From positions 1 to 52,091 of the forward strand of contig JBEKDF010000019.1 of NCBI GenBank assembly GCA_050014495.1: a DNA stretch of 52,091 nucleotides, in the 5' to 3' direction. This document shows positions 1 to 36,322 of this stretch, in pieces (the stretch's first letter is position 1; every line of letters starts with the position of its first letter). Source of the stretch: Candidatus Bathyarchaeia archaeon (lineage in GTDB: Archaea; Thermoproteota; Bathyarchaeia; TCS64). Below the pieces are notes generated by a model that did no database searches, had not been told where the DNA came from, and saw nothing but the letters and a program-made list of their open reading frames with translations. The translations under genes and the position numbers were made by a program.

Positions 1-211
1 AACCATTAGCAGAAGTGTGGTAATGAAAGTTGAGATTCCTTTTCTCTTTTTAGTCACGACCATTTTCAAGACCTAATCTAAAGAAAGTTTCAATGTATTT
101 AATTCTTCGGTAACTTATGACCTTACCATTAGTTAGAACTATTTTTCCAATATTCTTAAATGATTTCCGATTTTTTACTATATAGAGAATTTGCTGACAG
201 GTGTAGGATGT

Positions 212-16352: not shown

Positions 16353-17396
16353 TTGATACCCTTGGCTCAGCGAGTTGAATTATACAAGCGACCAGACGTC
16401 GAAGCCGTGATGAATGCGCTTCTCAGTAAGACTGGCCGGCTTGACCCAGTTTTCGACCTACAATACGGATATAGGTACCCCAATGTCGAGACGGCGATCA
16501 ATAAAGACTCAGATGGAGCCGTTGCACTGCTAGAGGATCTCTATGAGGGAGGGATTCTAGATAGCCAAATCTACGACATGGAGATACGATGCCCGGAGTG
16601 CGGAAGTCCAAACGTCTCAACAAGGTATCTATGCCCGGTCTGTGGATCCTTCCACATCAAGAAGACCATACTCATGGAGCACCTAGACTGTGGGTATCTC
16701 GGAAACTTGACGACATTCGGGGATCCACTAGTCTGTCCAAAATGCGAACAGCCCCTGGTAGAGGGTGCCTATAGAAACGCTGGAAGCATCTATGAGTGCG
16801 CCGACTGCAAAAAGCAGATCGATACCCCCTTCGTGAATCACTGGTGCAGAAACAAGGGAGTCAACTTTAGCTTCGAGAACGCTATCTACCAAGGAAAATT
16901 CTCCTACTTCCCAACCGCGGAGACTAAAGAGGATCTCGAGAGGGGAATTATCTTCATCTCCCCCATCACAAATATCTTCGAGGGATTGGGCCTGAAGCAG
17001 ATGGATGTCCCAAAAATCGTGGGAACATCCGGTGTGGAGCTAACCTTCGACGTCGGCTATCAAGGAGCCGGGAGAAAATACTTCGTCGATATCCTTCAGG
17101 GTAAGGAGCTATTCGGCGAGTTCGATATCCTAAGAGAATATGGCAAGATTACCGACTCTAAGGTGGAAACCTTCGTTCTCGTCCTGCCCGGGCTCGATAA
17201 CAAGGCGACCACAATGGCCAAGTCATACAAAATGAATATGATCGACGCTCCGACAGTCGGTGAGATACACGCGAAACTAACTTCAGCTCTCAGAAACAGT
17301 GGTTTATCCCAGAGTGCTATGTCGGTTCCAAGTCCTAAATCGGATAAGGAAGATAAGAAATCAGAAGAGAAACCTAAGAGTCGTTGGCGAACTTAG
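16353..17396 (+). CDS. TackOD1-like multi-Zn-ribbon protein with C-terminal Mrr/PD-(D/E)XK-like domain
   Basis: CPECGS, CPVCGS, EHLDCGY, CPKC, YECADC, HWC; C-terminal GTSGVELTFDV. Confidence 0.75.
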   Translation: MIPLAQRVELYKRPDVEAVMNALLSKTGRLDPVFDLQYGYRYPNVETAINKDSDGAVALLEDLYEGGILDSQIYDMEIRCPECGSPNVSTRYLCPVCGSFHIKKTILMEHLDCGYLGNLTTFGDPLVCPKCEQPLVEGAYRNAGSIYECADCKKQIDTPFVNHWCRNKGVNFSFENAIYQGKFSYFPTAETKEDLERGIIFISPITNIFEGLGLKQMDVPKIVGTSGVELTFDVGYQGAGRKYFVDILQGKELFGEFDILREYGKITDSKVETFVLVLPGLDNKATTMAKSYKMNMIDAPTVGEIHAKLTSALRNSGLSQSAMSVPSPKSDKEDKKSEEKPKSRWRT

Positions 17397-20882: not shown

Positions 20883-21731
20883 TTGAAAAATGTAATTAAG
20901 GAGCGTAGGGGTGATTCGACAATTGTAGCTACCGTATTATTGATGGCAATAACCCTCTTCTGTATAAGTCTGACGTTAAACTTCGTTCAAACGAGTCTAG
21001 CCAGACACGATGGAGAGAACGACTTCACGCTCTCACAGACCTTCATGAAGAATATTGGACTAAGTGTGGACGATGTCGCTTGGCACCCCGGACAGAGCAA
21101 CACTATCCAATACAGCTCAGAATCAGCTGAGATAAACCTACGGCCGAGTCTCATTCACTACAAAATCGAGGTCTGGAAGGTAGGAGATCACAGCTATTCA
21201 ACGCTAAAAGAATATGACACGGCGGTTCTCTTCTACGATCTCCCGCTAACAAAATATTATCTAGATAACACCTATTTTGATAATATTCTTCCAAGTAATA
21301 TGACTCAGCTCATCCAAAACTCGACAGAGGCCCCAATAACCAGAGTATTTTCTGTGCAGAGGGCTCCAATAGTGGGCGAGAACGCTTACATTAAGACCTG
21401 TGTAGCCTCATTATTCAGAAGCGTTCAGTTTAATATCAATGCTAATGGGGCGAGCACCAGCTATCTAAAGCTGTATTTAGCAAATATGACCTTAGGCCCA
21501 TTAACGACTGCGAACCCCCGCTACATTACTCTGACTGGTAAAAATGTAGGTGCCTCGGTAATTAACAATGTTTTACATTTACGAGTTTCAGTATCGTTCC
21601 CGAGCTCGGTAAGTGGGTACAATTCAACCTTCTTCAACTTCCCAGTTACCAGTCAGACAATAGACTTTCCCATAACTGGGTCGGAAGTCGAGTTATACGT
21701 AGGCACAGTTCAGGTGGGATTCCTAGAGTAG
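20883..21731 (+). CDS. Minor pilin-like protein with class III signal peptide
   Basis: ERRG|DSTIVATVLLMAITL; first gene of a tightly packed operon. Confidence 0.8.
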   Translation: MKNVIKERRGDSTIVATVLLMAITLFCISLTLNFVQTSLARHDGENDFTLSQTFMKNIGLSVDDVAWHPGQSNTIQYSSESAEINLRPSLIHYKIEVWKVGDHSYSTLKEYDTAVLFYDLPLTKYYLDNTYFDNILPSNMTQLIQNSTEAPITRVFSVQRAPIVGENAYIKTCVASLFRSVQFNINANGASTSYLKLYLANMTLGPLTTANPRYITLTGKNVGASVINNVLHLRVSVSFPSSVSGYNSTFFNFPVTSQTIDFPITGSEVELYVGTVQVGFLE

Positions 21732-21742
21732 GTGAAAAGTGA

Positions 21743-22198
21743 TTGGCAAGCGTTGTTACTGAAAATATCATAATCATGATCCCGGTTTTTATCGCGATGA
21801 TGATCTTCGCTCTGGTCGCTAACGCCGTGGCTTCCAACTACTCGATGCAGCAGAGAACACTCATCATTAACAGCGCCGAGAATCAGCTTGCCACAACAAT
21901 ATCCCAGCTTTATTACACCATAAGTCAACAGGATATGCTCCCTTGTAACATCACAAAGTCGACTCCTCTACCTGATCAAATAGATGGGCAAAACTATTCT
22001 GTTAATGGAACGTTAAATGGAAACGTCCTAGCTCTAACATTCAATTTCCCCGGATTAACTGTCTCTGACACCACTCACGTTAACCTAGGCCCGGGTGTGC
22101 ACTGGGACTCCTCCTCAGTGTTTGTCAGCACCAACCGTCAATCGGTTATAGCGATCCAAAAGAAATCATCAGGAGAATTATGGATTAGTTTCAGGTGA
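21743..22198 (+). CDS. Minor pilin-like protein
   Basis: N-terminal VVTENIII plus hydrophobic helix; LPDQIDGQNYSV; AGGTGA SD upstream. Confidence 0.7.
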   Translation: MASVVTENIIIMIPVFIAMMIFALVANAVASNYSMQQRTLIINSAENQLATTISQLYYTISQQDMLPCNITKSTPLPDQIDGQNYSVNGTLNGNVLALTFNFPGLTVSDTTHVNLGPGVHWDSSSVFVSTNRQSVIAIQKKSSGELWISFR

Positions 22199-22203
22199 AA
22201 TAG

Positions 22204-25200
22204 ATGGGTGCCAACATAATAGACTACATCGCTAGCTTCGTCATACTCCTCGGTCTATTGACAATCACAGTGACCGTGACTACGCAGACCCTCGACAACA
22301 TCTATAATTATCACAGCAGCCAGCAGATGAACACAAGAGCAACGAATCTGCTGAACGATCTCACAGAGAGCACTGGTATTCCTGAAGATTGGGCTCAGGG
22401 TTCAACAGCACCCACCAGCATAGGATTTCGCTGGGCGGTGGGTGAAGGCTCCTACATCAATCCCTTCGCACCGATGAGGTTGATGAACTCGAGCGTAACC
22501 CATTCTCTGGGTCCGTATAACTATAATGACTTATCCAGCGCCACACTAAGCCCATGGCCAAACGCTAACATCAATTTCAAGGTTGGCGACGCAGTAAGCT
22601 ATGAGGAAGCTTCTCAGCTGCTCGACACAAGTGGCAGCTACGGCTGGAGGGTGACATACAATCCCCTACTAAACATAACCCTGGCACCCACAATTGTATC
22701 CACCATTCCATGGTATCAAGGATGGGGCTACAGACAAGCCATAACGATTGACCACACACAGGTACCGGAACTTCTCACAAACTATCCCTTTCTCATCAGC
22801 TTAACCCAGCAAAACATCGCGCAAAATGCACTTGGTGACGGCGGAGACATACTCTTCACAACCTCAGATAGGGTAACAAAAATCCCTCATGAGATCGACT
22901 CATATGATAGCTCGACTGGACATCTATTAGCTTGGGTGAAGATACCACAGCTATCAAACACTGTGGATACCGTCATTTACATTTATTATGGTAATCCATC
23001 AGCTCTCAACCAGGAATCACCCAGCCAAGTTTGGTCAGGGTATCGTCTAGTCTCTCACATGAGTGACAACCCTGACTCATCTCATATCTCCGACAGCTCT
23101 CCGGATGGGCTAACTGGAACTAAAAAGGGGGACTCGGAACCTGCGCAGACAAATGGCGTAATCTCCTTCGCACAAAACTTCGATGGCTCAAATGATTACG
23201 TTACACTAAATCAGGGCACATTAACAGGCGGTTTAGTAGTATACGAGATGTGGCTGAAGAGTGTTCAATCAACCAGTCCCCAGACTATACTAACGAGTGG
23301 ATTCAAAAACAACACCCTAGGGTTCATCGATATCAGCAGGCCTTCCTCTAGTGATGATCTCTCCTTTGATTACGCAGCGAGTTCTAACTGGGTCAGTAAA
23401 ACTAATGGACTCAGTGACGGAGTCAAGATTAACTGCGTCACCTCCTACAACGGGAAAGTCTATGGGGGGGTCTCGGATGGCTCTCTAGTAGAATGGGATG
23501 GTGCCAGTAAAATATGGGTTCTAAGAGCCGCCCAACTCAATTCGCAAACCAGCATCAACTGCTTGGCAGTCTTTAATGGGAAGCTCTACGGCGGTACAAG
23601 CCCGGGGGGTCGTTTATTTGAGTGGACAACCGGAGCCACAGTCTGGACACAGAGAGCCCCTCAACTCGGGGCCGAGACTGACATAAAGTCTCTCGCAGTC
23701 TACGATCCAGGCACAGGTAGCAAACTATACGGCGGAACAAGCCCCGGAGGAAAATTGTACCAGTGGGACTCCACAAATTATGTTTGGATTCAAGTGGCGC
23801 CCAAGCTCAAGATACTGAGCCTCGCTCTATTCAACAACAAAATATACGGAGGAACTGATGACGGCCGTCTACTCGAATGGGACTCAACTAACCTTGTATG
23901 GGTTCAGGCAGCTGCACAACTAGGATCCGAGACATCCGTCAACTGTTTAACCGTCTATAATCCCGGGTCGGGAAGCAACCTCTACGCCGGGACCTCACCT
24001 GATGGGATGCTCTACCAATGGGACTCCGTGGGTCGTGCATGGATTCAGAAAGCAACTAAAGGGGCACTCTCAATCACCGACATCACATCACTGAATGTTT
24101 TCAACGGGAAAATATACGCTGGGACAAACCCTAATGCATATCTCTGTTCATGGGTATCCTCCCAGACATCCTGGAACCAGGAGCAAACAGCAGCCGGCGA
24201 ATCAATGATCAACTCTCTGGCCACTGCTGGTTCAACATCGGCTAACAGCTACGGCTTCGGTACTAACTCCGGCAACTGGAACAATCCCACACAGGCAGCA
24301 ACATCAGACAATCTATACGCTACCCCCAATACTGTTTTGACGAGGTCTCCAATCTCGAATAACGGAGCTTGGTCAAACCCAACGAATGCTTACTCCTCAG
24401 GAGGTGGAGTAGCTAGTACAACGACGTCAAGTGCTCAGCATATCTATTTTGGCTATGGTTTCTCCGTAGGTGCTAGCTCTTCAGTTGATATGGTTAGAGT
24501 AAGATTAGATGCATATTGTTCAGCCATTACCCAACAGATTAAACTTGAGATCTCTACTGATGGAGGTTCCACGTGGCGCCCAACGTCGACCACCATTAAC
24601 GTAGCATCAACAACTCTAACAACCTACTGGGTTGATGTCACATCCTGGGACACTTGGACACCAACTAAAGTTAACAATATTAGAACTAGAGTGACCTTTA
24701 TTAAATCTGGAAGTGGAACTAAAACAATAGATTTGGATTGGATCCCTGTTGAAGTTACATATTCAACTCAACCCATGACTCACACATTTTCACAGTGGAA
24801 TATCAGTCCACCCTACACAACAATCTCAAAAGTTGAGGTCGGAATAGAAGGATACACAGCTGGAACTGGCCAGCTCTCAGTAACAGTTTCCTGGGATGGT
24901 GGCACAACATGGGCCACCGCACAGACCATTAATTTACCAACGACAGACCCAAACTCCTCCACCTACCTAGACTTCACTTCAGCCACCAGCTGGACCACTA
25001 CAAAGCTCAGTAACACGAATTTCCAGGTAAAAGCTACCTATGTATATAATGGTGCAGCGAGTGCTGGATACCTAGACTACATATCCACAAGGATAACGTC
25101 ATCAGCAACACTACTCTACGCATCAACATCACCTCACACATATCTCTATTCTCTAACCACTGTAGGATCTTGGACGAAGAAAATAACTACACAGTACGGC

Positions 25201-28020
25201 ACGGACACGATAGTCCTCTCCCTAGTTAACAACGCAAATTATATCTATGGATGTGCTTCCCCTAGCGGAAAACTTCTCAGATGGGACACAACTGTAGGAG
25301 GCTCTACGTGGACTCTGGCTACCAATCCACCTACTTCTCAGATCCCGATTTCACTATTCTCAAACGGCGCAACCCTCTACTGTGGAACAACGCCAAACGG
25401 GTACCTATACACATTCAACGGGGCATCATGGACCTCCGTAGTAACGACACAGTATGGTGTTGAAACTTCAATCCTATCAATGGCGTTAGACTCGGGTGGG
25501 AACCTCAGAGTTGGCACCGACATCAACGGTCTACTACTAGGCGTGAGCGGGAGCAGCTATACGAAGAGTGCAGATATTGTGATCACGGGAGAATCCGGAA
25601 TACTATCCCTAACCGTCTTCAATCCCGGCACCGGCAACCAACTATACGGTGGGACTACCCCCAATGGTAGACTATTCGCCTGGAGTGGATCAGGCACATG
25701 GGTCCCAAAAACCACGACACTAAACAGTCAAACTGACATAACATCACTAACAGTGTTCAACCCCGGTTCGGGAAACAAGATTTACGGTGGTACAAGCCCC
25801 GGGGGTCACCTATTCGAGTGGAGCTCCGGAGCATCATCATGGACGGAGAGGGCGCCTCAGCTGGGTTCCGAGACGAAGATAAACTCGCTAGCTGTGTACA
25901 ACCCCGGTTCAGGGAGTAAGATTTATGGTAGCACAAGCCCCGATGGTTGCCTATTCGAGTGGGGGTCCGGAGCATCCGCTTGGACGCAAAGGGCTACGGA
26001 GTTTAACTCGGAAACAGATGTTACATCCTTAGTCACCTTCGACCCAGGGTCAGGAACTAAACTTTATGGCTCAACTGGTCCAAGCGGGTCGCTGCTTGTG
26101 TGGGATAATAACAGTCAATGGAGTCAGGTCGTAACGTACTCGATAATACAGTCTATGACAGCATTCAATGGTAACATCTACTGTGGGACGTCAACTGGTA
26201 GACTGTATGTATGGAACTCTGTAGCATCCCGATGGGATATGAAGGCGAGCACTCTTGGGGCAACATCCGCCGTGGACTCCCTCATCATATTCAATAATCT
26301 GCTCTATGGAGGGACGGCAGATGGTCGTCTACTGCAGTGGGATGGAACAAGTACATGGATACTGAAGGCATCACAGCTCAGCAGTCAGGCCATCAATAGT
26401 CTCGCAGTGTATAATTCGAAGATCTATGGTGGGACTAGTCCAAGCGGATGCCTATTCGAGTGGAATGGAGTCGGTGCATGGACGCAAAAAGCAGCGCAGC
26501 TAAATTCACAAACCTCCATAAATACTATTACTACTTTTAATGGCAATTTATACGGCGGCACAAGCCCCGGTGGATGTCTATTTGTATGGATGACCGGTGC
26601 TGCTCAATGGACTCAGGTTGCACCTCAGTTAGGCTCAGAGACCTCGATAAACTCCCTCGTGGTCTTTAACAATAAAATATATGCAAGCACTTCGCCGGGT
26701 GGGCGCCTCTTCCAATGGGATGGAGCTGGTACATGGATAGGCAAAACCTACATTCTAGGCTCAGAAACCAATATCCTCAGTCTTGCGATATGTAATGATA
26801 AACTGTATGGCAGCACATCACCAGATGGATTACTATACGAGTGGGATGGGGCGACAAAATGGGTGCAGATTTGCAATACCCTCAACACCCAAAGCTCCGT
26901 CACGATCATCACATTAAATGGGAATTTATATGGGGCTTCTCAGCCAACTGGTTACCTCTTCCAACTGAGTGACAGTGGCACAAGAATCATCCCGAACTTC
27001 TTCACAGGCTATAGTAACAGCTGGTTACAACTAGTAATAGTAGCAAATTATGCGGCTGGCCGAGTGGATATATACAGAAATGGATTGCTGCAAGGATCCT
27101 TGACCTCAACAACTTCAATGATTGCCCCAACTTCAGGACCCAGGTATATGGGTGCATATGTAGTCGCGGGTGTCGCCAATAACCCCTATTTTGGGGGAAT
27201 AGACGAGCTGAGGATCTCCCAAACAAATCAGGATGCGAATTGGATAAAACTGAGTTACAATAACGAAGCGAATCCAGGCAGCTTCATCACAGTAAACACA
27301 AGCGAGTCTATCTACTTCAGAGTTAGTGCACTCGTCACAGCTAAAAATGGACCAGTTAGCAACGCAACTTTGACTGGGACACTTATCTACTGCATCCCCG
27401 GTGCAACAACGCCAAGCTACTCGCAATTGACATCTCAACCCGTAACAACCAGCTCGAACGGCGCTGCAACTTTGAGTTTCAGCGGCTACACATCAACAAT
27501 CGGCGTCTATTTCCTAGCTGTGAGGGCTAATCACGCTGGAGTACAAGATATCGGCTACTACGTTAGTTCACAAACTCCAAAACCTGATCCCTTGGGAGTA
27601 TTTGTTACTAATTATGGAAATGGCACACTGACCCTAGTCCATAGAAAGGACATGGATATACATTATCCCTCATCCACAGATGTGGCTTATAACACGACTT
27701 TTGCGATGCCCATCGGACCTTCTTCCTATCGATCGGTCTCATTAAACTCTGCAGGTGTGCTTAGTGTGGGTACTCAAAAAATTGTCCAATTAGGAGCAGC
27801 TGTGGATAACCCTGGAGTACTAATCACATTTTTGAAAACCGGAGCCAACACCTATGGATTGACTTACACACCTTGGGGTGTCAGCTCTCTCAACCTAAGA
27901 GCCACCTTTGGGGCACCCATAATGGATGCCACGAATGTCATCACTAAGACGAGGATAGTCAACATCGAATCTTACACATACGAGGTCCAGGTCCAGATGT
28001 GGAAAATAGGAGGCGACTGA
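22204..28020 (+). CDS. Giant minor pilin/adhesin with inserted DUF2341, LamG, 21 beta-propeller blades and two jelly-roll-like domains
   Basis: N-terminal IIDYIASFVILL helix; GIPEDW; DUF2341 (WGYRQAITID...IYIYYGNP); LamG (FDGSNDYV...GGIDELRIS); repeats INSLAVFNGKLYGGTSPGGRLFEW. Confidence 0.8.
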   Translation: MGANIIDYIASFVILLGLLTITVTVTTQTLDNIYNYHSSQQMNTRATNLLNDLTESTGIPEDWAQGSTAPTSIGFRWAVGEGSYINPFAPMRLMNSSVTHSLGPYNYNDLSSATLSPWPNANINFKVGDAVSYEEASQLLDTSGSYGWRVTYNPLLNITLAPTIVSTIPWYQGWGYRQAITIDHTQVPELLTNYPFLISLTQQNIAQNALGDGGDILFTTSDRVTKIPHEIDSYDSSTGHLLAWVKIPQLSNTVDTVIYIYYGNPSALNQESPSQVWSGYRLVSHMSDNPDSSHISDSSPDGLTGTKKGDSEPAQTNGVISFAQNFDGSNDYVTLNQGTLTGGLVVYEMWLKSVQSTSPQTILTSGFKNNTLGFIDISRPSSSDDLSFDYAASSNWVSKTNGLSDGVKINCVTSYNGKVYGGVSDGSLVEWDGASKIWVLRAAQLNSQTSINCLAVFNGKLYGGTSPGGRLFEWTTGATVWTQRAPQLGAETDIKSLAVYDPGTGSKLYGGTSPGGKLYQWDSTNYVWIQVAPKLKILSLALFNNKIYGGTDDGRLLEWDSTNLVWVQAAAQLGSETSVNCLTVYNPGSGSNLYAGTSPDGMLYQWDSVGRAWIQKATKGALSITDITSLNVFNGKIYAGTNPNAYLCSWVSSQTSWNQEQTAAGESMINSLATAGSTSANSYGFGTNSGNWNNPTQAATSDNLYATPNTVLTRSPISNNGAWSNPTNAYSSGGGVASTTTSSAQHIYFGYGFSVGASSSVDMVRVRLDAYCSAITQQIKLEISTDGGSTWRPTSTTINVASTTLTTYWVDVTSWDTWTPTKVNNIRTRVTFIKSGSGTKTIDLDWIPVEVTYSTQPMTHTFSQWNISPPYTTISKVEVGIEGYTAGTGQLSVTVSWDGGTTWATAQTINLPTTDPNSSTYLDFTSATSWTTTKLSNTNFQVKATYVYNGAASAGYLDYISTRITSSATLLYASTSPHTYLYSLTTVGSWTKKITTQYGTDTIVLSLVNNANYIYGCASPSGKLLRWDTTVGGSTWTLATNPPTSQIPISLFSNGATLYCGTTPNGYLYTFNGASWTSVVTTQYGVETSILSMALDSGGNLRVGTDINGLLLGVSGSSYTKSADIVITGESGILSLTVFNPGTGNQLYGGTTPNGRLFAWSGSGTWVPKTTTLNSQTDITSLTVFNPGSGNKIYGGTSPGGHLFEWSSGASSWTERAPQLGSETKINSLAVYNPGSGSKIYGSTSPDGCLFEWGSGASAWTQRATEFNSETDVTSLVTFDPGSGTKLYGSTGPSGSLLVWDNNSQWSQVVTYSIIQSMTAFNGNIYCGTSTGRLYVWNSVASRWDMKASTLGATSAVDSLIIFNNLLYGGTADGRLLQWDGTSTWILKASQLSSQAINSLAVYNSKIYGGTSPSGCLFEWNGVGAWTQKAAQLNSQTSINTITTFNGNLYGGTSPGGCLFVWMTGAAQWTQVAPQLGSETSINSLVVFNNKIYASTSPGGRLFQWDGAGTWIGKTYILGSETNILSLAICNDKLYGSTSPDGLLYEWDGATKWVQICNTLNTQSSVTIITLNGNLYGASQPTGYLFQLSDSGTRIIPNFFTGYSNSWLQLVIVANYAAGRVDIYRNGLLQGSLTSTTSMIAPTSGPRYMGAYVVAGVANNPYFGGIDELRISQTNQDANWIKLSYNNEANPGSFITVNTSESIYFRVSALVTAKNGPVSNATLTGTLIYCIPGATTPSYSQLTSQPVTTSSNGAATLSFSGYTSTIGVYFLAVRANHAGVQDIGYYVSSQTPKPDPLGVFVTNYGNGTLTLVHRKDMDIHYPSSTDVAYNTTFAMPIGPSSYRSVSLNSAGVLSVGTQKIVQLGAAVDNPGVLITFLKTGANTYGLTYTPWGVSSLNLRATFGAPIMDATNVITKTRIVNIESYTYEVQVQMWKIGGD

Positions 28021-28023
28021 TCG

Positions 28024-29370
28024 ATGCTTAAAACAGTTGAAGCGTTATTTGTTGTAGTATTGGTTTTTACTACGCTTGTCGCGATGGAGAGCTATATTCA
28101 GCTTCCTTCTCCCAGACTCGCATCAAGTATCGGTCAACAGGAATTAGCGACAACCACACTAAAGAGTCTAGATAACGATGGGACCCTAACGCAAGCGGTT
28201 TTTAGCAGTGATCAGCGTCAATGGGCGGAGCTTCTAAAATCAATTGACAACAATCTCCCATCTAACACGATCTATAAACTAACCTCCTACCAAATTATAA
28301 TCAACCAAACAACCGGCATCCTCGATTATGTTCAAGACAAGACGGGTGGAAACTTTAACGGTGTGTTTCCTTCCGGTTCAATAACCTCAGAGTATACTGT
28401 GACCTCCCCAAATGTTACTGTAACCCAGATTCCGGAAAAGATCAGAACGAAGAATGGACCCGTAACTCTTTACATACTAAATTGCAATGATGCTAATGGA
28501 TGGTGGATAACGGGGTACACAGGTTATACTTTAGCCAAGAGTGTCTATCAGACTATGTCCCCATACTTCACAACCACAATATTAGTGAACTCCACGTCTC
28601 AGCTTGGTTCATTACTTTCTGGAACCAAGCTCACCACTAACCCTAATGAGCGGATCCAGGACGCAGTTGTGGTTAATACGTTTGGTGAGTCCGTTCCCAT
28701 CCCTCAAAATTTGACCGCTAATTATCAACAATATCCCTATACCATAGGTAAAAGAGTCACTGCCTCAAATTGGACGTGGGTAAGCATCGTCGGATATCCT
28801 TTTTACTACGATTCGAATAAAGTCACATTTTCCTCATACGATAATTCTTGGGGCATACACGGTATGCGAATGATCGCTGCACAAGGTCTAAACTATTTCC
28901 TCCAAGGAATTGACTCCTCCTATCATTCTTCACCTGTGGAGAATGATACCTGGATTACTGACTCGATCGGAGTTGTCTCCTATACCGAACAGATTCGTGC
29001 GGCCATGGATTATTACGGAATATACCCTGGATTAACGCAGACTTCAACACGTGCCGTACCGTTTACTGACATCAGTCGATATCATATGGTTTTACCTATC
29101 GACTCTCAAGGTAATGCATACTCAAATATTTTCAACCCCATCACATCGGGTGGCAAGCAGTACTATGCTGGAGCAATCTGGGCTCATAGGATTGGCGGAG
29201 TAACCAATGGAGCGTTTATGGCTATGGGATTGGATAGAACTCCTGACATCAGGGTCACATTGATCGGCCTCCTCAATTACTATAAACCCACTCTACTGAG
29301 GTCACAGTTCGACGTCGTTGGGACGACTAGAATGATTGAGCTGCAGATAGGTCAATTAGGAGCAAGCTAA
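28024..29370 (+). CDS. Minor pilin-like protein
   Basis: MLKTVEALFVVVLV N-terminal helix with Glu; coupled to neighbours with 1-3 nt gaps. Confidence 0.7.
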   Translation: MLKTVEALFVVVLVFTTLVAMESYIQLPSPRLASSIGQQELATTTLKSLDNDGTLTQAVFSSDQRQWAELLKSIDNNLPSNTIYKLTSYQIIINQTTGILDYVQDKTGGNFNGVFPSGSITSEYTVTSPNVTVTQIPEKIRTKNGPVTLYILNCNDANGWWITGYTGYTLAKSVYQTMSPYFTTTILVNSTSQLGSLLSGTKLTTNPNERIQDAVVVNTFGESVPIPQNLTANYQQYPYTIGKRVTASNWTWVSIVGYPFYYDSNKVTFSSYDNSWGIHGMRMIAAQGLNYFLQGIDSSYHSSPVENDTWITDSIGVVSYTEQIRAAMDYYGIYPGLTQTSTRAVPFTDISRYHMVLPIDSQGNAYSNIFNPITSGGKQYYAGAIWAHRIGGVTNGAFMAMGLDRTPDIRVTLIGLLNYYKPTLLRSQFDVVGTTRMIELQIGQLGAS

Positions 29371-29371
29371 T

Positions 29372-31330
29372 ATGAAGATCAGAGCTCGCCGCGGGCAATT
29401 CCAAATTATGGCCGCTTTTCTAGTCCTCGTGATAATGGTAAGTGCAATAATTGCCGCGTTCAATAGAATTCAGGACAATCCATTTAAGACCCCTGTCACA
29501 TTGGCTGATTCAATTAAAACTGTAGATAATTCACTTCACGAACTACTAGGTTTCTCTGTTGGTTACTATGGATCAATAATTAAACTCACGGGCAATGTCA
29601 CCTACGCCAAAGAGAAAACGACATCTTATTTCCAAAGCGGACTTGAGACTGTAGCACATCAAGACATTAACAGCGGAGTGTCTCTCTCGCTTCAACAAAT
29701 CTCCGTCTCCACAAACTGGTTTGAGAAGCAGGGATATACAAAGGGAAGTCTAATCGTTAATTACTCTATTCCAACTCTAGGACTTTACGGGATCAAGTAC
29801 AGCGGATCAGCGTCTCTAACTGTGAGTATTCTACAAACAACAGGTACCACCTGTAATGTACAAGTTCTAGGAGATAATAACGAACCAAACTTATCCCTAA
29901 CAAAAGATGATTTTCAATTCTTCAAATACGACAGCTCTCAGAATGCTTGGATCTACATCAACCCCACTTATGATCCAATAATCTCAAACTTTGGAATATA
30001 CTCAATCACGTTGCCCTCTGGGATAAATCAGGACGCCTATTATCTACAGGTCACTGACCAGAGGGGTATCGTTGCTTCAAGTGGTTACGTCAGGGGTATT
30101 GGTGGAAACAACAAGGATCTGACCTCATATACCTATAATTTCACTTGGAATCCCGCACTGTACAATTCCCTCAATGAACCGAAGATGGAGATAGAGCTAC
30201 TTCAGAATGGTACGATGCGTTGGCTGGGGCAAAGCCTTCCCTTCAGTGGTACTCCGAGGCCTATAGCACCTATACCCGTGAAGGGTATTCACCTCAACCA
30301 GACTATTGACGGCGTCAACCAGGAGGTGCCCTTCCAGATCGAGAACTGGGGTTCAAACTATAGAGTTCCATATGGAATGACAAGTAATTCGACTATATTC
30401 GATGATAACTGTATGATCGTGTTCCTAGTCAACCATCACGTGTCGAAGGTGACTCTTTGGTGGGATGGATCGGACACAGCTGTCCAGACAAAAAATGCAT
30501 ACAAAGATACAGCTTTCCTTAACGACAACACTGGGAACAACGTCCTTGACAACGGAGTCATAACCCTAGATCTTTCTAACTTTGCTAATGGTGTTAAATC
30601 GACTACGAAATCTAACCCATTATTAAGTTCATGGATTAACTTTGCGAGGGTAAATAGCGTGGTGCCGACGTATGGTTCGGCTGTTTCATATACACTAATA
30701 CATGGGGTTGTAAGAGACGTCGTAATACAGGAACCTGAGTGGAGCGGAGGTGTTCCAAACTCCCCAGATCTTTATGGCCACATCGTTATCACACTTCCCG
30801 CTGGAACAGATTATTACACCTACAGGGTGAGAAATATCTTCGTTTCAACCTCTCTGACCAGAAGCATAAGCGACTTGAGCGTTATTCAGTTGAAGGCACC
30901 GACTGGAAGCTATAGTCAACTGACTGAGGACGGTCAGAATAGCGGTTCACCCATAAAGAGTTCAAGTGCTCTCTTCGCTAACGGACTGACAGCCTACCAA
31001 CATCAATGGAGTGAGTACATAGACTCGTCTAATAGAGGAGTAGGACTATTCATGCGTTCCAATTTCAACGATCTTATTTATGCATTTGATAATGTTATTG
31101 GGCAGCACACAGGCTCGATTTCCCTAAATCCTTCACAAATGAATATAGAAATTGACCCCATCAAGCGCTTCGCTGTGACTGGATTTTCACAAAGCCTTGA
31201 TGTAACATGGGTGGGTGGAGTAGTCAACTTTAATTCAGGCAGCCCAGCTGACTCAATTTACCCAAACTCCAGTGGAACCCTGGGTCTTTGGGTACTTGTT
31301 GAATCTCCACCAACTGTCACTCCGAATTAG
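29372..31330 (+). CDS. Minor pilin-like protein with class III signal peptide
   Basis: RARRG|QFQIMAAFLVLVIM. Confidence 0.78.
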   Translation: MKIRARRGQFQIMAAFLVLVIMVSAIIAAFNRIQDNPFKTPVTLADSIKTVDNSLHELLGFSVGYYGSIIKLTGNVTYAKEKTTSYFQSGLETVAHQDINSGVSLSLQQISVSTNWFEKQGYTKGSLIVNYSIPTLGLYGIKYSGSASLTVSILQTTGTTCNVQVLGDNNEPNLSLTKDDFQFFKYDSSQNAWIYINPTYDPIISNFGIYSITLPSGINQDAYYLQVTDQRGIVASSGYVRGIGGNNKDLTSYTYNFTWNPALYNSLNEPKMEIELLQNGTMRWLGQSLPFSGTPRPIAPIPVKGIHLNQTIDGVNQEVPFQIENWGSNYRVPYGMTSNSTIFDDNCMIVFLVNHHVSKVTLWWDGSDTAVQTKNAYKDTAFLNDNTGNNVLDNGVITLDLSNFANGVKSTTKSNPLLSSWINFARVNSVVPTYGSAVSYTLIHGVVRDVVIQEPEWSGGVPNSPDLYGHIVITLPAGTDYYTYRVRNIFVSTSLTRSISDLSVIQLKAPTGSYSQLTEDGQNSGSPIKSSSALFANGLTAYQHQWSEYIDSSNRGVGLFMRSNFNDLIYAFDNVIGQHTGSISLNPSQMNIEIDPIKRFAVTGFSQSLDVTWVGGVVNFNSGSPADSIYPNSSGTLGLWVLVESPPTVTPN

Positions 31331-31535
31331 TAAAATACAATTCGCAAACTAAAGCGGCGCGTGTGCATTACCCTGCAACTTAGTAAATATCCAAACAATG
31401 TCCAACTAATAATTTTTCGAGTCTAAATAATAGCCAATACAGTATTTTTTAATTTCGAATACTTACGATCCTTAACCATATTAATTTCATCAAACAAGAA
31501 AAAACAGATTTTTAAAAAAAATCTTTACGTGTAAA

Positions 31536-32180
31536 CTAAGCTGGGTTGAAAATATAATAGCTGATGTTAAAAACTATATGAAAAATTGAAGGTATGGAGA
31601 TATTCTTTTGAATAATGTAGATACCTCCCACGGCCCAACCGAATATCATTCTAATTAGAATTAACGCTAAAAGCATAAAACCGATGTTTCCGCTAATAAT
31701 AAGTGAAATTGTGTCGGAATGAACTAGAGCAAAAGCGAGAGAGGTCAAGAGGAGTGGTTGAGTAGCCCTTATTACAAAAGATCGTCTATCCTCCCTCGGT
31801 ATTGAGTAAAATTTTGGCCAGTCATTTATCATAGATCCGAGGAGGTAGCATCGGAAAAAAAGTTCCTCAATTATTGGGAGCAAAATTGAACCTCCGAATA
31901 GTATTGTAGCTGTTCCGAAATTATTCTTAAAGTATAAAAACACAATTGAAAATACTAAAGCGTATATTAAAAATTGAAAGTTTTTTAAATGTAGATCAAG
32001 TCTATCGCGTAAAGACCTCTTTTCCGCCCATTTTATCCATATAATTGAGGTCGCTGTCATGTAAGTTGATAGTATGCCTACTTTGAATAACGTATCCTGA
32101 TTATAGATGCTGAAAAAAACTTGAATACTAAACAAACCAACCCAGGAGAATAATTTTAATATAGTTTTATTTGATTTCAT
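31536..32180 (-). CDS. CPBP (CAAX protease/Abi-like) intramembrane protease
   Basis: PIIEELFFR, FALVH and HIVFN motifs; multiple TMs. Confidence 0.88.
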   Translation of the reverse strand: MKSNKTILKLFSWVGLFSIQVFFSIYNQDTLFKVGILSTYMTATSIIWIKWAEKRSLRDRLDLHLKNFQFLIYALVFSIVFLYFKNNFGTATILFGGSILLPIIEELFFRCYLLGSMINDWPKFYSIPREDRRSFVIRATQPLLLTSLAFALVHSDTISLIISGNIGFMLLALILIRMIFGWAVGGIYIIQKNISIPSIFHIVFNISYYIFNPA

Positions 32181-32389
32181 TTATTAACATCCTTTAACAA
32201 CAATAATATATGGGAGGTTTCATCTTCATTCTTTGTATGAATGGCAATTATGGGATTTCATATGTTAGAACCTTTTTAAGGTAATGTAGAATAAATATGG
32301 ATTACTAATACTATATTAGTGATATTGATGGATAATCTAAAAACTATATATGCATAATGACGTGAACATGTAGTTCGGAGAAAAATAAA

Positions 32390-32836
32390 ATGCAACTCCT
32401 TAAGATAGAAAAGAGGAAAGGAATCAGCCCACTAATCGCCACCCTGTTGCTAATAGCGATCGCAGTCGCTGCATCTGTACTAACCTACTCATGGGTCATG
32501 TCCATGATCACTAGCCAGTCCGCACAGGCACAGACCCAAGTACGCATAGATTCAGTTACATGGGCCAGTGGTTCTCAATTTTCACTCGATGTTAGGAACA
32601 CCGGAAGCGTTGATGCCACAATTGAATCAGTGTCGATCAGGACCAATTCCGCTGGCAGTACAGCAACTGTTGACAGCACAAGTGCAGGTGTTAAATTAAT
32701 AAGTATTGGACAAGGAACACACCTACCTATTGGGCCAGTCAGTTACACTTATGGTAAAAGCCAGTCTTACGTCATAAGAGTGACCACTAACACCGGATTC
32801 TACTACGAAGCAGTCTTCACGTCCCCTGCATCTTAA
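32390..32836 (+). CDS. Major archaeal type IV pilin
   Basis: KRKG|ISPLIATLLLIAIAVAASVLTYSW; VRNTGS; 148 aa. Confidence 0.92.
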   Translation: MQLLKIEKRKGISPLIATLLLIAIAVAASVLTYSWVMSMITSQSAQAQTQVRIDSVTWASGSQFSLDVRNTGSVDATIESVSIRTNSAGSTATVDSTSAGVKLISIGQGTHLPIGPVSYTYGKSQSYVIRVTTNTGFYYEAVFTSPAS

Positions 32837-32837
32837 A

Positions 32838-32873
32838 CACCCTTTTTCCTGGTGAAATATTCCCCCTTTTTTT
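32838..32873 (+). terminator. Oligo-T tracts between pilin and ATPase
   Basis: CACCCTTTTT (32838-32847) and T7 (32867-32873). Confidence 0.5.
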
Positions 32874-32932
32874 AAGGTAATCGCAGAGTCTAGTGAGAAT
32901 GTCCTGACAAAAAATAGAGATGAAGTGAATCA

Positions 32933-34600
32933 ATGAGAGACACACAACTTCTTATTAACAAAGAAAAAGAACATCAGAAGGATATGCCCGCAAAAGAGGT
33001 TAAAGAAGTGCAGAAGGCCTTCGAGGAGGATCTTCAGAAACTCCTAAAGGAGGAAGCTGCGAAATCCCCCAGCAACGCGATGGGGTTCACCCCTGTTCGT
33101 GCATTCATTCCCGATCGTACTCCTCTGAAGAATATCTATCCCATAATAGATGGGAAAGCGTATGCGGTCATATCAACAAATCATACAACAAGACAGACAA
33201 AATACGAAGCAGTTGAACCCACACTAAATGATGAAGATAAGAAGGCTCTAAAACTCGTCAGAGATCACTTCACGGCAACCATCGACACAACCCTAACGGA
33301 GGTGGGTGGCTTGGACGCTGCCTTAGGCTCTTTGAAGAAAGGGCTCGATGAAGCCGTCTCACTACATAAACTGAATCTTGAAGAGTTCAGGAAAGAGAAG
33401 CTGATGTACTACCTCGCCAGAGACTACCTAGACTATGATAAGATCGACATCATGATGAAGGATCCCTACATAGAGGACATCAGCTGCAACGGGCCCAATG
33501 TGCCCCTGTACATTTGGCACAGGGTCTATGAGTCAATCCCCACAAACATCGTATTTGATAACGATAGTGAGCTTGACTCCTACATAATCAGGCTCGCATA
33601 CAAATCAAAGAGGATGATCAGTGTAGCTAATCCCATTCTAGACGCTGCGCTACCTGATGGCAGCAGAGCCCAAATGACTTACAGTAAATACGCCACCAAG
33701 CAGGGCAGCACCTTCACGATCAGAAAGTTCAAAGCCGATCCACTGACTATAATTGACCTGATCAAGAACCACACAATCTCGGCGAAGATGGCCGGATTAT
33801 TCTGGTACCTCGTTGAGAACAAGATCAGCATATTCTGTTGTGGCGGCGTTGCATCTGGTAAAACAACGATGCTGAATGGCTTATCCACCTTCATCGCTCC
33901 TGATGCGAAGATTATCACAATCGAGGACACTCCTGAGGTTCAACTCTACCACGAAAACTGGATTAGGGCAGTAACTAGACCAAGCACGGGCTCATCCGTC
34001 GGTATCACACTATTTGACCTACTCAAGGCGGCTATGCGTCAGCGCCCCGACTACATCCTAGTGGGTGAGATCCGTGGAGAAGAAGCATACACACTATTCC
34101 AGGCAATGTCCACTGGCCACTTGGGTCTAGCCACTCTTCACGCTGAATCGACTCAATCAGCCCTCAGGAGGCTTGAGACCGAGCCAATGAACATCCCACG
34201 CATGATGATCGCTGGGTTAAACATGGTAGTCATCATGGCGAGACGTGATGTTAATGGAAGACCCGGACGACGCATCCTCACCGCTGCTGAGGTCCAAGGA
34301 CTCAGCGATGATAACGAGATCATAGTGAAGGACATCTTCGACTGGGACCCCAAGACCGACACATGGAATATGCCTAACCAGAGCTTCTACCTCAAGAAAG
34401 CCGCAATTATGAAGGGAATCACATTGGAACAGGCCCAGTCTGACATCGATGCGAGGGCCGAGATGCTGACGTATCTAGTGAATCATAACAAGAGGGGCTT
34501 CAAAGAGGTTACCCAGGTTATCCGAGACTACATGAGTACCCCTGAGAGCGCAAGAGAGGCCCTGATGAAGGAGGATGAGGCAGAAGTTGAAGCCAATTAA
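32933..34600 (+). CDS. Type IV pilus assembly ATPase (ArlI/TadA/VirB11-like)
   Basis: DPYIEDISC, Walker A GGVASGKTT, TIEDTPE, RQRPDYILVGEIRG, TGH...TLHA. Confidence 0.95.
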   Translation: MRDTQLLINKEKEHQKDMPAKEVKEVQKAFEEDLQKLLKEEAAKSPSNAMGFTPVRAFIPDRTPLKNIYPIIDGKAYAVISTNHTTRQTKYEAVEPTLNDEDKKALKLVRDHFTATIDTTLTEVGGLDAALGSLKKGLDEAVSLHKLNLEEFRKEKLMYYLARDYLDYDKIDIMMKDPYIEDISCNGPNVPLYIWHRVYESIPTNIVFDNDSELDSYIIRLAYKSKRMISVANPILDAALPDGSRAQMTYSKYATKQGSTFTIRKFKADPLTIIDLIKNHTISAKMAGLFWYLVENKISIFCCGGVASGKTTMLNGLSTFIAPDAKIITIEDTPEVQLYHENWIRAVTRPSTGSSVGITLFDLLKAAMRQRPDYILVGEIRGEEAYTLFQAMSTGHLGLATLHAESTQSALRRLETEPMNIPRMMIAGLNMVVIMARRDVNGRPGRRILTAAEVQGLSDDNEIIVKDIFDWDPKTDTWNMPNQSFYLKKAAIMKGITLEQAQSDIDARAEMLTYLVNHNKRGFKEVTQVIRDYMSTPESAREALMKEDEAEVEAN

Positions 34601-35474
34601 CTTCCATAGCATAGGTTACAGGTTCCTCGGGGATGCTCCTTCTAGACTCCCGCTGAGTGACTTTATTAAAACTAACCTAGATCGGGCAAGCATCAGGATG
34701 AGCTACGTCGTCTACATGAGCAGTATGGCTTTCTGGATGATAGTCAGTGCTGCTTTAACTGGCCTCATAGCCATTCCAATTGTTTACTTCCTCGGGCCAA
34801 TGCTGAAACTTCCTACATACTTCCTCTACGTGGCTCTAGCATCACCACTGATAGCTGCAGCGGTTGTTCTCATTTGCTTCATCTATTATCCATTCTCCGT
34901 GGCTGATGCAAAAAAGATGAAACTCGACAAGAACATGGTCTACATCATTAACTACATGAGTGTCTTGGCCGGCGCGGGGATCATGACGGAGGATGTATTC
35001 CAGTCCTTCGCGACTCTCAAAGACACCTATGGAATCAGAGACAGCGCCAGGTCGATAGTTCGAGACATCGGCTTACTGGGAAAAGACATCATCTCAGCTA
35101 TCGAAGCAGAGGCGAAGAGAACTCCCTCTAAGAAGTATTCAAAGCTGCTTAATGGTCTTCTCGGAATCACGAAGTCGGGAGGCGACTTCAAGAAGTACCT
35201 CGAGGAGACTGCGAAGCACGAGCAGGAGGTAAGACGTCGAGAATTGGTAGATATAGTGAATAAACTGAATATGTGCGCGGAGATCTACATCACACTTGGG
35301 ATTACATTTCCAATCATCCTCATCGTCCTGCTATCTCTCATGGGTATCTTCGGAGGAAGCATAGGCGGAGGATTTAGCCCTGTTCAACTCATGGAACTAA
35401 TGACTTACGCGATCTTTCCGGTAGCCGCGATCGGAATTATATTGTTAATAGACGGGATGACCCAGAATTGGTGA
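34575..35474 (+). CDS. T2SS-F/TadC-like membrane platform protein
   Basis: TM helices, LGKDIISAI, RTPS, SGGD; overlaps the ATPase gene. Confidence 0.88.
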   Translation: MRQKLKPINFHSIGYRFLGDAPSRLPLSDFIKTNLDRASIRMSYVVYMSSMAFWMIVSAALTGLIAIPIVYFLGPMLKLPTYFLYVALASPLIAAAVVLICFIYYPFSVADAKKMKLDKNMVYIINYMSVLAGAGIMTEDVFQSFATLKDTYGIRDSARSIVRDIGLLGKDIISAIEAEAKRTPSKKYSKLLNGLLGITKSGGDFKKYLEETAKHEQEVRRRELVDIVNKLNMCAEIYITLGITFPIILIVLLSLMGIFGGSIGGGFSPVQLMELMTYAIFPVAAIGIILLIDGMTQNW

Positions 35475-36322
35475 GCATACCACTTAATAGCGAAATCATA
35501 TTCAACAAGAAGTTGAAATACGCACTAATGGGCGCTTCAGTAGTAGCTGCAATAGGCGTAGTATTATTCGGCTACAGTCTCTATCTAGCCAACACAATCA
35601 GTCTATACGATGCCCACATCTTCGTGGCAGCTGGGGTAATCGTTGGAATGATTGCACCGGCTTTCATTATGATTCTTCAGGATATTAGAAGGAATGAGAT
35701 TGATAAGGCGTTACCTCGAGTCCTCGAGGAGATATCTGAAGGTCTAATGTCCGGCATGACACTAATAGAGGCCATTGAGGAGGCTTCCAGACGGGATTAT
35801 GGATGGATCAGCAGAGAGCTTAAGATCCTCACTAGCCAGATGAGCTGGGGCGTTCCAATCGAGAAAGCATTCGACAACTTCGCGACTAGAATAGGCACAG
35901 ATATGGCTCAGAAGACGACGTCTCTTCTACTCTCGTCAATCGAACTCGGAGGAGACCTCAGAACAACCTTCCTATCCACAGCCGATTTCCTGAGGCAGAT
36001 GTTGGAGGCAAGAGATGACAGGAACGAGGAGATGCGGCCATATCTAACCATCATCTATGTGACCCTGATCGTCTTCCTGGCCATGATGATTATGCTTTAT
36101 GGTAGCCTAAATCAGCTCCTCAGCATCCAGAGTCCAATCGTCAAAGTCCAGATGACGAAGGAGCAGCTGAAGATCTTACTATACGACTTAGCCATAATGG
36201 AAGCCGCATTCGGTGGACTCATCGCTGCAAAGCTTAGCTCTGGGAGTATCTGGCCTGGGCTTAAGCACAGCATCATCATGTTAGCGATGAACACCATTAT
36301 ATTCCTACTATTCATCTCGTAG
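35468..36322 (+). CDS. Second T2SS-F/TadB/C-like membrane platform protein
   Basis: IDKALPRVL...SGMTL...WGVP...GGDL...GLKH. Confidence 0.88.
   Translation: MVSIPLNSEIIFNKKLKYALMGASVVAAIGVVLFGYSLYLANTISLYDAHIFVAAGVIVGMIAPAFIMILQDIRRNEIDKALPRVLEEISEGLMSGMTLIEAIEEASRRDYGWISRELKILTSQMSWGVPIEKAFDNFATRIGTDMAQKTTSLLLSSIELGGDLRTTFLSTADFLRQMLEARDDRNEEMRPYLTIIYVTLIVFLAMMIMLYGSLNQLLSIQSPIVKVQMTKEQLKILLYDLAIMEAAFGGLIAAKLSSGSIWPGLKHSIIMLAMNTIIFLLFIS

Follow-up and report, generated by a model that had tools for sequence, protein, structure and literature searches.

Several described archaeal pilus loci come close to the one reported here, above all the complex form of subclade 4A in the Desulfurococcales, known in silico only (PMC4858521), the PilB4 locus of Haloferax volcanii (HVO_1154-1158) together with the 4C loci, and the clade-2 locus of Nitrosopumilus. 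Our subject is a type IV pilus locus at positions 20,883 to 36,322 of contig JBEKDF010000019.1 (contig C19; assembly GCA_050014495.1), from a 3.1-Mb, 96%-complete genome of a Candidatus Bathyarchaeia archaeon; the 52,091 nucleotides of that contig are called the window below. Five minor-pilin genes (MP1 to MP5, the cassette) stand there near a predicted major pilin, an assembly ATPase and two TadC-like platform proteins. We conclude that the locus combines a pilin set of the 4A/PilB4 type with a motor of the thaumarchaeal type, that it includes leaderless subunits and a giant modular pilin, and that it belongs to a kind which is known but uncharacterised. Each half has a precedent in silico: the pilin set resembles those of PilB4/4C and 4A, and the motor that of thaumarchaeal clade 2.

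In Table S4 of PMC4858521 the 4A locus of Desulfurococcus fermentans comprises a fused TadC, arCOG08836 (254 aa, first copy FlaFind-positive), arCOG03511 (870 aa, negative), arCOG08837 (367 aa, negative), arCOG10426 (about 130 aa, positive) and arCOG10615, and the paper calls the origin of the 4A components untraceable. The five slots of our locus fit these pilins in order, size and leader status, a match of layout and not of sequence; in the window, by contrast, the motor falls outside the 4A/Aap side of the tree, a pair of genes encodes TadC, MP4 carries an insert and lacks a leader, and the cargo sits in slot 3. PilB4 and 4C loci have five homologous slots. The window ATPase is on the clade-2 side and the slot order is that of 4C, whereas PilB4 loci run 3-4-5-2-1, with a fused TadC, leaders on all five pilins and small heads. 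The Nitrosopumilus locus (arCOG01817, two arCOG01808, arCOG06883/TackOD1, arCOG03871, arCOG11939; rows 982-990 of the same table, with clade_2 genes) has the same motor module and branch, two TadC, TackOD1 and an anchored surface protein of about 900 aa, but the pilins listed for it are others, not the five-slot set. The characterised Aap pilus of the Sulfolobales is alike in its PilA-type major pilin and proposed adhesive role and lacks the five-slot set. For Epd (clade 1), which is marked by a clade-1 ATPase, a dedicated EppA peptidase in its locus and a short arCOG06620 major pilin, the comparison is one of gene content, in which our locus has no peptidase and a 148-aa pilin; the ATPase trees contained no clade-1 sequence. 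System 2 of PMC13705601 is described there by a single platform protein, against two tadC genes in the window, although many clade-2 loci have two (Makarova 2016, PMC4858521), and the locus may be counted in PMC13705601 under its System 2, 4A or Aap model. An adhesive module on a pilin is also described for Streptococcus sanguinis PilB/PilC, where a ConA/LamG-like module is placed at the tip (PMC8179133, PMC9934059), and for the DUF2341 adhesins of archaeal clade 1 (arCOG03508), the likeness in both cases being one of description. Compared with such modular tip pilins, the cargo of the window lies inside the pilin head, in three nested layers, and on a leaderless subunit.

The features of the locus are as follows (a slash in a leader marks the predicted cleavage site).

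20883..21731, + strand: MP1, 282 aa, slot-1 minor pilin, DUF7289/arCOG02911-like (class III leader RRG/DSTIV; profile match)
21743..22198, + strand: MP2, 151 aa, leaderless slot-2 pilin, DUF7266/arCOG03926-like (Pfam DUF7266, E 5e-4)
22204..28020, + strand: MP3, 1938 aa, leaderless slot-3 pilin, DUF7287-like, with nested cargo insert (relatives align to both ends)
22687..27285, + strand: MP3 cargo (aa ~162-1694), DUF2341, then a LamG/ConA-like domain split by propellers (Pfam)
23389..26985, + strand: about 21 beta-propeller blades inside MP3 (repeat hidden Markov model, AlphaFold2, Foldseek)
24259-25098, + strand: two related beta-sandwich-like domains inserted in blade 7 (AlphaFold2, pLDDT ~55)
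28024..29370, + strand: MP4, 448 aa, leaderless slot-4 pilin, DUF7288-like, insert at aa ~143-425 (AlphaFold2, hhalign)
29372..31330, + strand: MP5, 652 aa, slot-5 minor pilin, DUF7261-like (class III leader RRG/QFQIM; hhalign)
31536..32180, - strand: Rce1/CPBP-family intramembrane protease (PF02517, E 3e-11; catalytic motifs intact)
32390..32836, + strand: predicted major pilin, 148 aa, PilA/UpsA-like, leader KRKG/ISPLI (NF046073, E 3e-12, under cut-off; TIGR02537 over cut-off)
32933..34600, + strand: assembly ATPase, 555 aa, VirB11-type (PF00437, E 3e-38; Walker A and B intact)
34575..35474, + strand: TadC-like platform protein 1 (PF00482, E 8e-11)
35468..36322, + strand: TadC-like platform protein 2 (PF00482, E 8e-20)
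17649..20252, + strand: 867-aa immunoglobulin (Ig)-like surface protein with C-terminal membrane anchor, likely accessory (relatives in metagenome loci)
16353..17396, + strand: TackOD1 zinc-ribbon protein, likely regulator (PF18551, E 7e-24)

A conserved five-slot pilin set

All nine open reading frames that an earlier note had claimed for the locus were found in place (282, 151, 1938, 448, 652, 148 and 555 aa and two T2SSF/TadC proteins). MP1 to MP5 each begin with a hydrophobic helix, and their genes form a tight operon with gaps of 11, 5, 3 and 1 nucleotides; the translational coupling proposed in that note thus holds as close spacing and not as overlapping stop and start codons, of which there are none. 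The major pilin, ATPase and two TadC genes do come next, as it had stated, but not in direct continuity: 1,059 nucleotides separate MP5 from the pilin and are filled by the minus-strand CPBP gene; the cassette and the pilin-ATPase-TadC-TadC operon are separate transcription units. A sigma-70 promoter scan, with a model unsuited to archaea, gave matches at chance level only.

The five genes are a conserved five-slot set, kept in order across the Thermoproteota. MP5 was matched in 69 of 301 bathyarchaeial genomes, the source genome included, and in none of 52 from its own family, and loci were taken from 40 of the 68 other positive genomes, picked for long contigs. MP1-5 order was kept in 38 of these 40, and in 38 an ATPase and one fused TadC lie directly upstream of the cassette, those ATPases being 35-41% identical to that of the window; 21 of the 40 had a recognisable major-type pilin behind the cassette. 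The MP4 profile matched 56 of 301 Thermoproteota genomes. Twenty further loci, picked by a short MP4-like N-terminal match and including 12 from 8 families outside Bathyarchaeia, showed all five slots in 18 cases, one of the others lacking slot 1 and one having slot 5 seen by motif only; in six of these short-form loci the motor sits between slots 2 and 3. Some Bathyarchaeia carry a short-form cassette of this interrupted arrangement as a second five-slot set (L189-L191, L194, L198, L200).

Because relatives of MP2 and MP5 gave weak Pfam matches to DUF7266 and DUF7261 (MP2 itself to DUF7266, E 5e-4; 2 of 6 MP2 relatives to DUF7266, 3 of 19 MP5 relatives to DUF7261), we compared 20 Halobacteriota loci, which carry DUF7289, DUF7266, DUF7287/7263, DUF7288/7262 and DUF7261 as five-gene sets. 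In a five-by-five hhalign matrix of profiles the expected pair was the best in every row and every column, with probabilities (P) for MP1 to MP5 of 48, 95, 22, 63 and 43 at full length and 80, 96, 53, 85 and 78 for the N-terminal parts, and of at most 18 for the major-pilin control. MP1 itself has no Pfam match, and its profile match to DUF7289 (arCOG02911, the signature pilin of clade 2; P 48-80) runs mainly via the N-terminal helix. Furthermore, Thermoproteota intermediates match both profile sets, with E-values for the MP1 slot of 4e-7 to 8e-6, computed against the open reading frames of those 20 loci only, and DUF7288 was matched (E 8e-4 to 5e-3) by 3 of 21 short relatives of MP4 that a blind search had yielded. 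By profile comparison the five slots are thus judged homologous to the euryarchaeal DUF7289/7266/7287/7288/7261 set of H. volcanii PilB4 and the 4C loci. Table S4 of PMC4858521 assigns HVO_1154-1158 to arCOG02911, 03926, 07777, 04652 and 06117, whose lengths and order fit these families; the link from DUF to arCOG is one of order and length, not of sequence. Our literature search, with subscription papers outside it, found nothing on the bathyarchaeial cassette nor on DUF7287, DUF7288, DUF7289, DUF7266, DUF7261 or arCOG08837.

The evidence on a recent horizontal gain of the cassette is divided. MP4 matched none of 70 own-family genomes, and the GC content at third codon positions is 0.44-0.51 in the cassette against 0.57-0.58 in the motor and a genome median of 0.60, both of which speak for a gain; other surface-protein genes are equally low in that measure, the unrooted MP4 tree follows families, and the motor relative G167 resembles decay, which speak against it.

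Leaderless subunits and nested cargo

Class III leaders are found only on MP1, MP5 and the major pilin. An in-frame stop lies immediately before the start codons of MP2 and MP3 and two codons before that of MP4, so these three cannot have a class III leader. Among relatives in which the anchor motif was found, and with [KR][GA] taken as the leader, it is present in 25 of 31 for MP1 and 8 of 8 for MP5, and in 0 of 37, 0 of 25 and 2 of 35 for MP2, MP3 and MP4, respectively. The starts of MP2-MP4 coincide roughly with residue +1 of their cleaved counterparts in euryarchaea and, by inspection, slots 2 and 3 of the short-form loci are leaderless and slot 4 retains its leader. System 2 of PMC13705601 includes pilin-like proteins without the motif, and the MP2-MP4 pattern is not mentioned in that description; a phrase search, again with subscription papers outside it, found no literature on leaderless pilins. 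Pilins without a leader throughout the phylum would depart from the rule of obligatory passage through the class III peptidase, and their lack of a leader would account for their being overlooked by leader-based screens.

The earlier note had given all five minor pilins large cargo domains. Large variable cargo in the window proved to be confined to MP3: MP1 and MP2 are of ordinary size, the 280-aa insert of MP4 is a conserved one, and the MP5 present here is the short form. The pilin part of MP3 consists of aa 1-161 and ~1695-1938, and 35 intact relatives of 385-458 aa align only to these two ends, leaving an insert of ~1,530 aa. Within it, DUF2341 (aa 212-277, E 3e-10, over cut-off) is followed by a split LamG domain (Laminin_G_3, aa 1602-1674, E 2e-5, under cut-off); the blades lie inside the LamG domain, and the two domains within blade 7 are 31% identical to each other. 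Twenty blades were found by the repeat model and one degenerate blade by eye. The AlphaFold2 model has a pLDDT of ~90 over the blades and ~55 over the domains in blade 7, and Foldseek gave propeller matches at E ~1e-10; the blades are likely three 7-bladed propellers. Nine database proteins have the giant form, one of them full-length; giant MP3s recur at 1,891 aa and, in L170 and L172, at ~2,492 aa, and the blades detected in giant MP3s number 19, 20 (window), 27 and 33, consistent with growth by whole 7-bladed units. Set against the 860-aa maximum of an InterPro census, MP3 and its giant relatives (1,938 to ~2,492 aa) are among the largest modular pilins that we found described.

Exactly seven blades occur in 38 of 115 propeller relatives, and 11 of 19 scanned relatives picked from the 115 are phage Dit, tail, baseplate, head-closure or virion proteins. 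In phage Dit, baseplate, head-closure and virion proteins (P0154, P0161, P0163, P0166, P0181, P0207, P0209) the propeller is present as an inserted 7-bladed family, for which the scans showed no dedicated Pfam or PHROG model.

Cargo is carried elsewhere in relatives. Intact MP5 forms measure 635-1,488 aa, with inserts near aa 240-265, 460 or 555-605 or at the C-terminus, MP5 being the usual place of cargo in relatives and empty of it in the window; among 19 scanned, the cargo includes F5/8C galactose-binding domains (2, over cut-off) and, under cut-off, DUF4082 (3) and a GH2 sugar-binding domain (1). Cargo was also seen in the 954-aa MP1 of G052 and at the C-terminus of MP3 in L175. The MP4 insert has a class I glutamine-amidotransferase-like fold (AlphaFold2, pLDDT 79); against a GH42 glycosidase domain it reached a modest VIA Z of 9.7 (rmsd 4.5, 196 aligned), and Foldseek found no match to the MP4 model at E<=0.001. 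The same domain also occurs in proteins of ~900-1,000 aa with lectin or LamG domains (P0065, P0071, P0074, P0096).

The motor, its pairing with the cassette and neighbouring genes

The genome holds what identifies an archaeal type IV filament: a VirB11-type ATPase, TadC and a class III pilin in the locus and a prepilin peptidase elsewhere. The window has no peptidase, as the earlier note had it; an A24 enzyme is encoded on contig C18 (24.7 bits in one scan, 28.7 bits against a cut-off of 26.5 in another). ATPase phylogeny was inferred from a quick tree (104 of 149 distinct rows, redundant rows dropped) and a careful tree of 65 rows, from which long branches such as haloarchaeal 4C were also dropped; reference rows were labelled by locus context (AapE rows: G530, G535, G615). 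The window ATPase falls in a Thermoproteota branch with two TadC genes and often TackOD1, which includes the Nitrosopumilales (support 97/89). A split supported at 100/99 puts this branch together with clade 2 and the archaellum, and the usual cassette motors, AapE, UpsE, BasE and the ATPase of the genome's second pilus locus (contig C23) on the opposite side. The window ATPase lies inside a 98-supported group with PilB3/PilB4 in the quick tree; in the careful tree it is sister to clade 2 plus ArlI and is not part of the ArlI clade (100/100). AapE is close to the motor that usually accompanies the bathyarchaeial cassette, and approximately unbiased (AU) tests on the quick tree (LG+G4) reject grouping the window ATPase with the usual cassette motors (p 2.5e-11) or with AapE (p 0.001).

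The Aap, Ups, bindosome and archaellum systems fall away on the following grounds, and no characterised system with the same motor and pilin set was found. Against Aap stands the rejected AapE grouping, along with the lack of an AapX-like Fe-S protein in the locus. An Ups pilus or bindosome (4I) is excluded by UpsA, UpsF, BasE and BasF models scoring far under cut-off and by a tree that places the window ATPase in a clade separate from UpsE and BasE. That the locus is not an archaellum, as the earlier note had argued from the lack of arlF/G/H, is borne out: a tblastn search of the 96%-complete genome for ArlB/F/G/H/J had no match at E<1e-4, no archaellin was found by PF01917, NF058587 reached 404 bits against a cut-off of 550, and the ATPase lies outside ArlI. 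Its reading as an experimentally uncharacterised, probably adhesive type IV pilus also holds.

Each of the 15 ATPases that neighbour a short-form cassette shares more identity with the Aap-side type (47-55%) than with the window ATPase (34-43%), so the pairing of cassette and motor in the window is likely derived; that it might be ancestral, as the unrooted MP4 tree suggested, was dropped for the same reason. The pairing is not a one-off, because G066, L167, L170 and L172 link a window-type motor to the cassette. G066 reads pilin-ATPase (65%)-TadC-TadC-TackOD1-MP1 up to the contig end, TackOD1 thus lying between TadC and MP1. Among 13 metagenome loci compared (one the window itself, several short), L167 keeps the window order up to the ATPase and L166 up to the pilin, and L170 and L172 have the same genes rearranged, with ATPases at 58-60%. 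An assembly or clustering accident of this genome alone is weakened by G066 and these four loci. At the closest motor relative (G167, L039:7640-8063) the adjoining pilin is broken and ESCRT-III-like genes lie upstream in the cassette's place.

The genome's second pilus locus (C23:38966-46031) has three pilins, an ATPase, two TadC, TackOD1 and a V4R protein. The usual cassette type of ATPase is not represented in the genome, where the best matches reach 43% and 37%. Near each of the two loci stand a TackOD1 and a V4R paralogue, a hint of a common regulatory module. Four more proteins with the head of the major pilin (44-64%) are encoded on contigs C42, C1, C17 and C14; in three of them, which have a greater length (213-277 aa), the similarity begins only at residue 36-41.

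As for the neighbours, the CPBP protease recurs in six metagenome loci besides the window (L166, L167, L170, L172, L174, L175), with catalytic motifs invariant in all seven aligned copies; it had no match in the 40 bathyarchaeial cassette loci and matched one of five GTDB genomes examined, in another context. A candidate substrate is the conserved C-terminal anchor of the 867-aa protein, as weak matches to the myxosortase family would suggest. That protein has relatives of 58-60% identity in L173-L177, of which L174, L175 and L177 also hold cassette, pilin or protease genes, and it weakly matches (E 5e-5) a protein encoded in a pilus locus of the Nitrosopumilales. TackOD1 genes are already known to accompany pilus loci in thaumarchaea (PMC5847659). 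In L173-L177 a 22-26-aa remnant, 73-82% identical to the C-terminal motif of MP3, follows directly after the gene of the 867-aa protein, as if rearranged.

The earlier note had devoted about 38 kb to this one system. TackOD1 and the 867-aa protein do accompany related loci, but the link to the 2,309-aa class III pilin at 191-7120 found no support: no full-length relative lies beside a cassette in any fetched locus, and two DDE transposase genes separate it from the pilus region. This pilin has ~16 tandem Ig-like repeats and four Big_3_5 domains, and paralogues on C4 (768 aa) and C20 (343 aa). The pilus region is flanked by two DDE (DUF772-type) transposases and a TnpB/IS605 OrfB (7227-8126, 10784-11590, 37201-38391). 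Further along the window, two convergent genes (45403-46548 and 46841-47827) encode an ArsR-like/DUF7347 N-terminus and a membrane helix with unrelated C-terminal domains.

A proposed tip complex, its rivals and its meaning

The reading that we favour, and hold to be rather probable, is that of an adhesive pilus whose filament would consist of the 148-aa pilin, with the five minor pilins joined in a tip or priming complex that would present the propeller/LamG insert of MP3 as an adhesin. PibD (contig C18) would cleave MP1, MP5 and the major pilin, and MP2-MP4, whose translation starts close to the mature +1 residue, would reach the membrane pool uncleaved. On the model of tip complexes in bacteria (PMC8179133, PMC9934059), these five subunits would come together first, because a cargo of 1,500 aa cannot pack inside a filament, and the ATPase and two TadC proteins would then add the major pilin beneath. 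Cargo swapped or expanded between lineages in MP1, MP3 or MP5 would alter the binding target of the tip, for which glycans on the surface of cells or on particles are the most likely candidates. The pairing with the window motor may have arisen once, in a small bathyarchaeial lineage, with the CPBP protease and the anchored Ig protein joining as accessories.

Several observations weigh against this reading. With the membrane helix removed, MP2 (P 89) and MP3 (P 56) still match their euryarchaeal counterparts and MP1, MP4 and MP5 fall below P 2, and Pfam's own DUF models miss most cassette members. G167, whose motor is 81% identical and whose pilin gene is broken, showed no cassette, nor did G143, another close motor relative; L174 has the motor, pilin and protease with other pilins; and G052, with the closest cassette, has no ATPase in the 20 kb fetched and a prepilin peptidase adjoining. 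Moreover, no pili were seen by electron microscopy in a cultivated bathyarchaeon (PMC10477458). Two further points, the transcription of cassette and motor as separate units and the C23 ATPase, which is closer to the usual cassette motor than the window ATPase is (43% vs 37%) and on that side of the tree, lead to an alternative that we regard as rather unlikely, namely that the cassette is served in trans by the C23 motor (clade-4 side), or by either motor, and that adjacency reflects clustering of surface genes. This would agree with the cassette of G052, which stands apart from any motor, and with the account in Makarova 2016 (PMC4858521) of motor modules and pilin sets evolving independently and mixing in trans. 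Set against it are the linkage to a window-type motor, which outlasts rearrangement and ~40% ATPase divergence in G066, L167, L170 and L172, the three pilin genes that C23 has beside its own motor, and the poor cross-complementation between motors reported in PMC13705601.

The five proteins might instead build a short membrane-proximal structure, a pseudopilus- or bindosome-like scaffold with MP2 as main subunit, that displays an adhesin or captures polysaccharide for uptake, which we think unlikely. Makarova 2016 (PMC4858521) names arCOG03926/06296 dedicated major pilins and locates them within the filament or basally rather than at the tip, a point that also counts against a tip complex; pilB4/pilC4 are expressed in H. 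volcanii, yet PilA pili are not built by them (PMC4371748), a major-type pilin was recognised behind only 21 of the 40 cassettes, and the MP4 insert resembles a glycosidase accessory domain. Major pilins are, however, often encoded away from the locus, the five slots are single-copy and ordered across the phylum as expected of a fixed-ratio complex, and no ABC transporter or binding-protein genes lie beside the window cassette. That MP2-MP4 are plain membrane-anchored surface proteins, stator-like or S-layer-associated, which no longer enter the filament seems to us very improbable: it would account for the leader counts given above (none for MP2 and MP3, at most two for MP4), and pilin-derived stators are described for the archaellum (PMC13705601), but the N-termini of MP2-MP4 are in register with the mature ends of leader-bearing euryarchaeal homologues, which suggests selection for a filament-compatible end, and MP4 keeps its leader in short-form loci.

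Beyond the favoured tip complex, we tentatively put forward a broader hypothesis, to which we give less than even chances: the five slots may be an ancient archaeal tip-initiation complex, a counterpart of bacterial PilHIJK common to Halobacteriota and Thermoproteota and portable between motor clades, in which two to three leaderless subunits of the Thermoproteota would bypass the prepilin peptidase and adhesive cargo, the phage-tail propeller included, would be set into fixed slots, the window locus being one re-wired onto a different motor with an intramembrane protease of its own.

How archaeal type IV pili start their assembly and what their tip is composed of are questions that a link between the untraced 4A pilins and the H. 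volcanii PilB4 set would open to experiment, in a genetically tractable organism where the PilB4 locus is expressed. The motor swap bears on how interchangeable motors and pilin sets are. For the Bathyarchaeia, abundant sediment archaea with almost no cell biology, the analysis points to a candidate device for adhesion and to the slots in which its specificity would vary.

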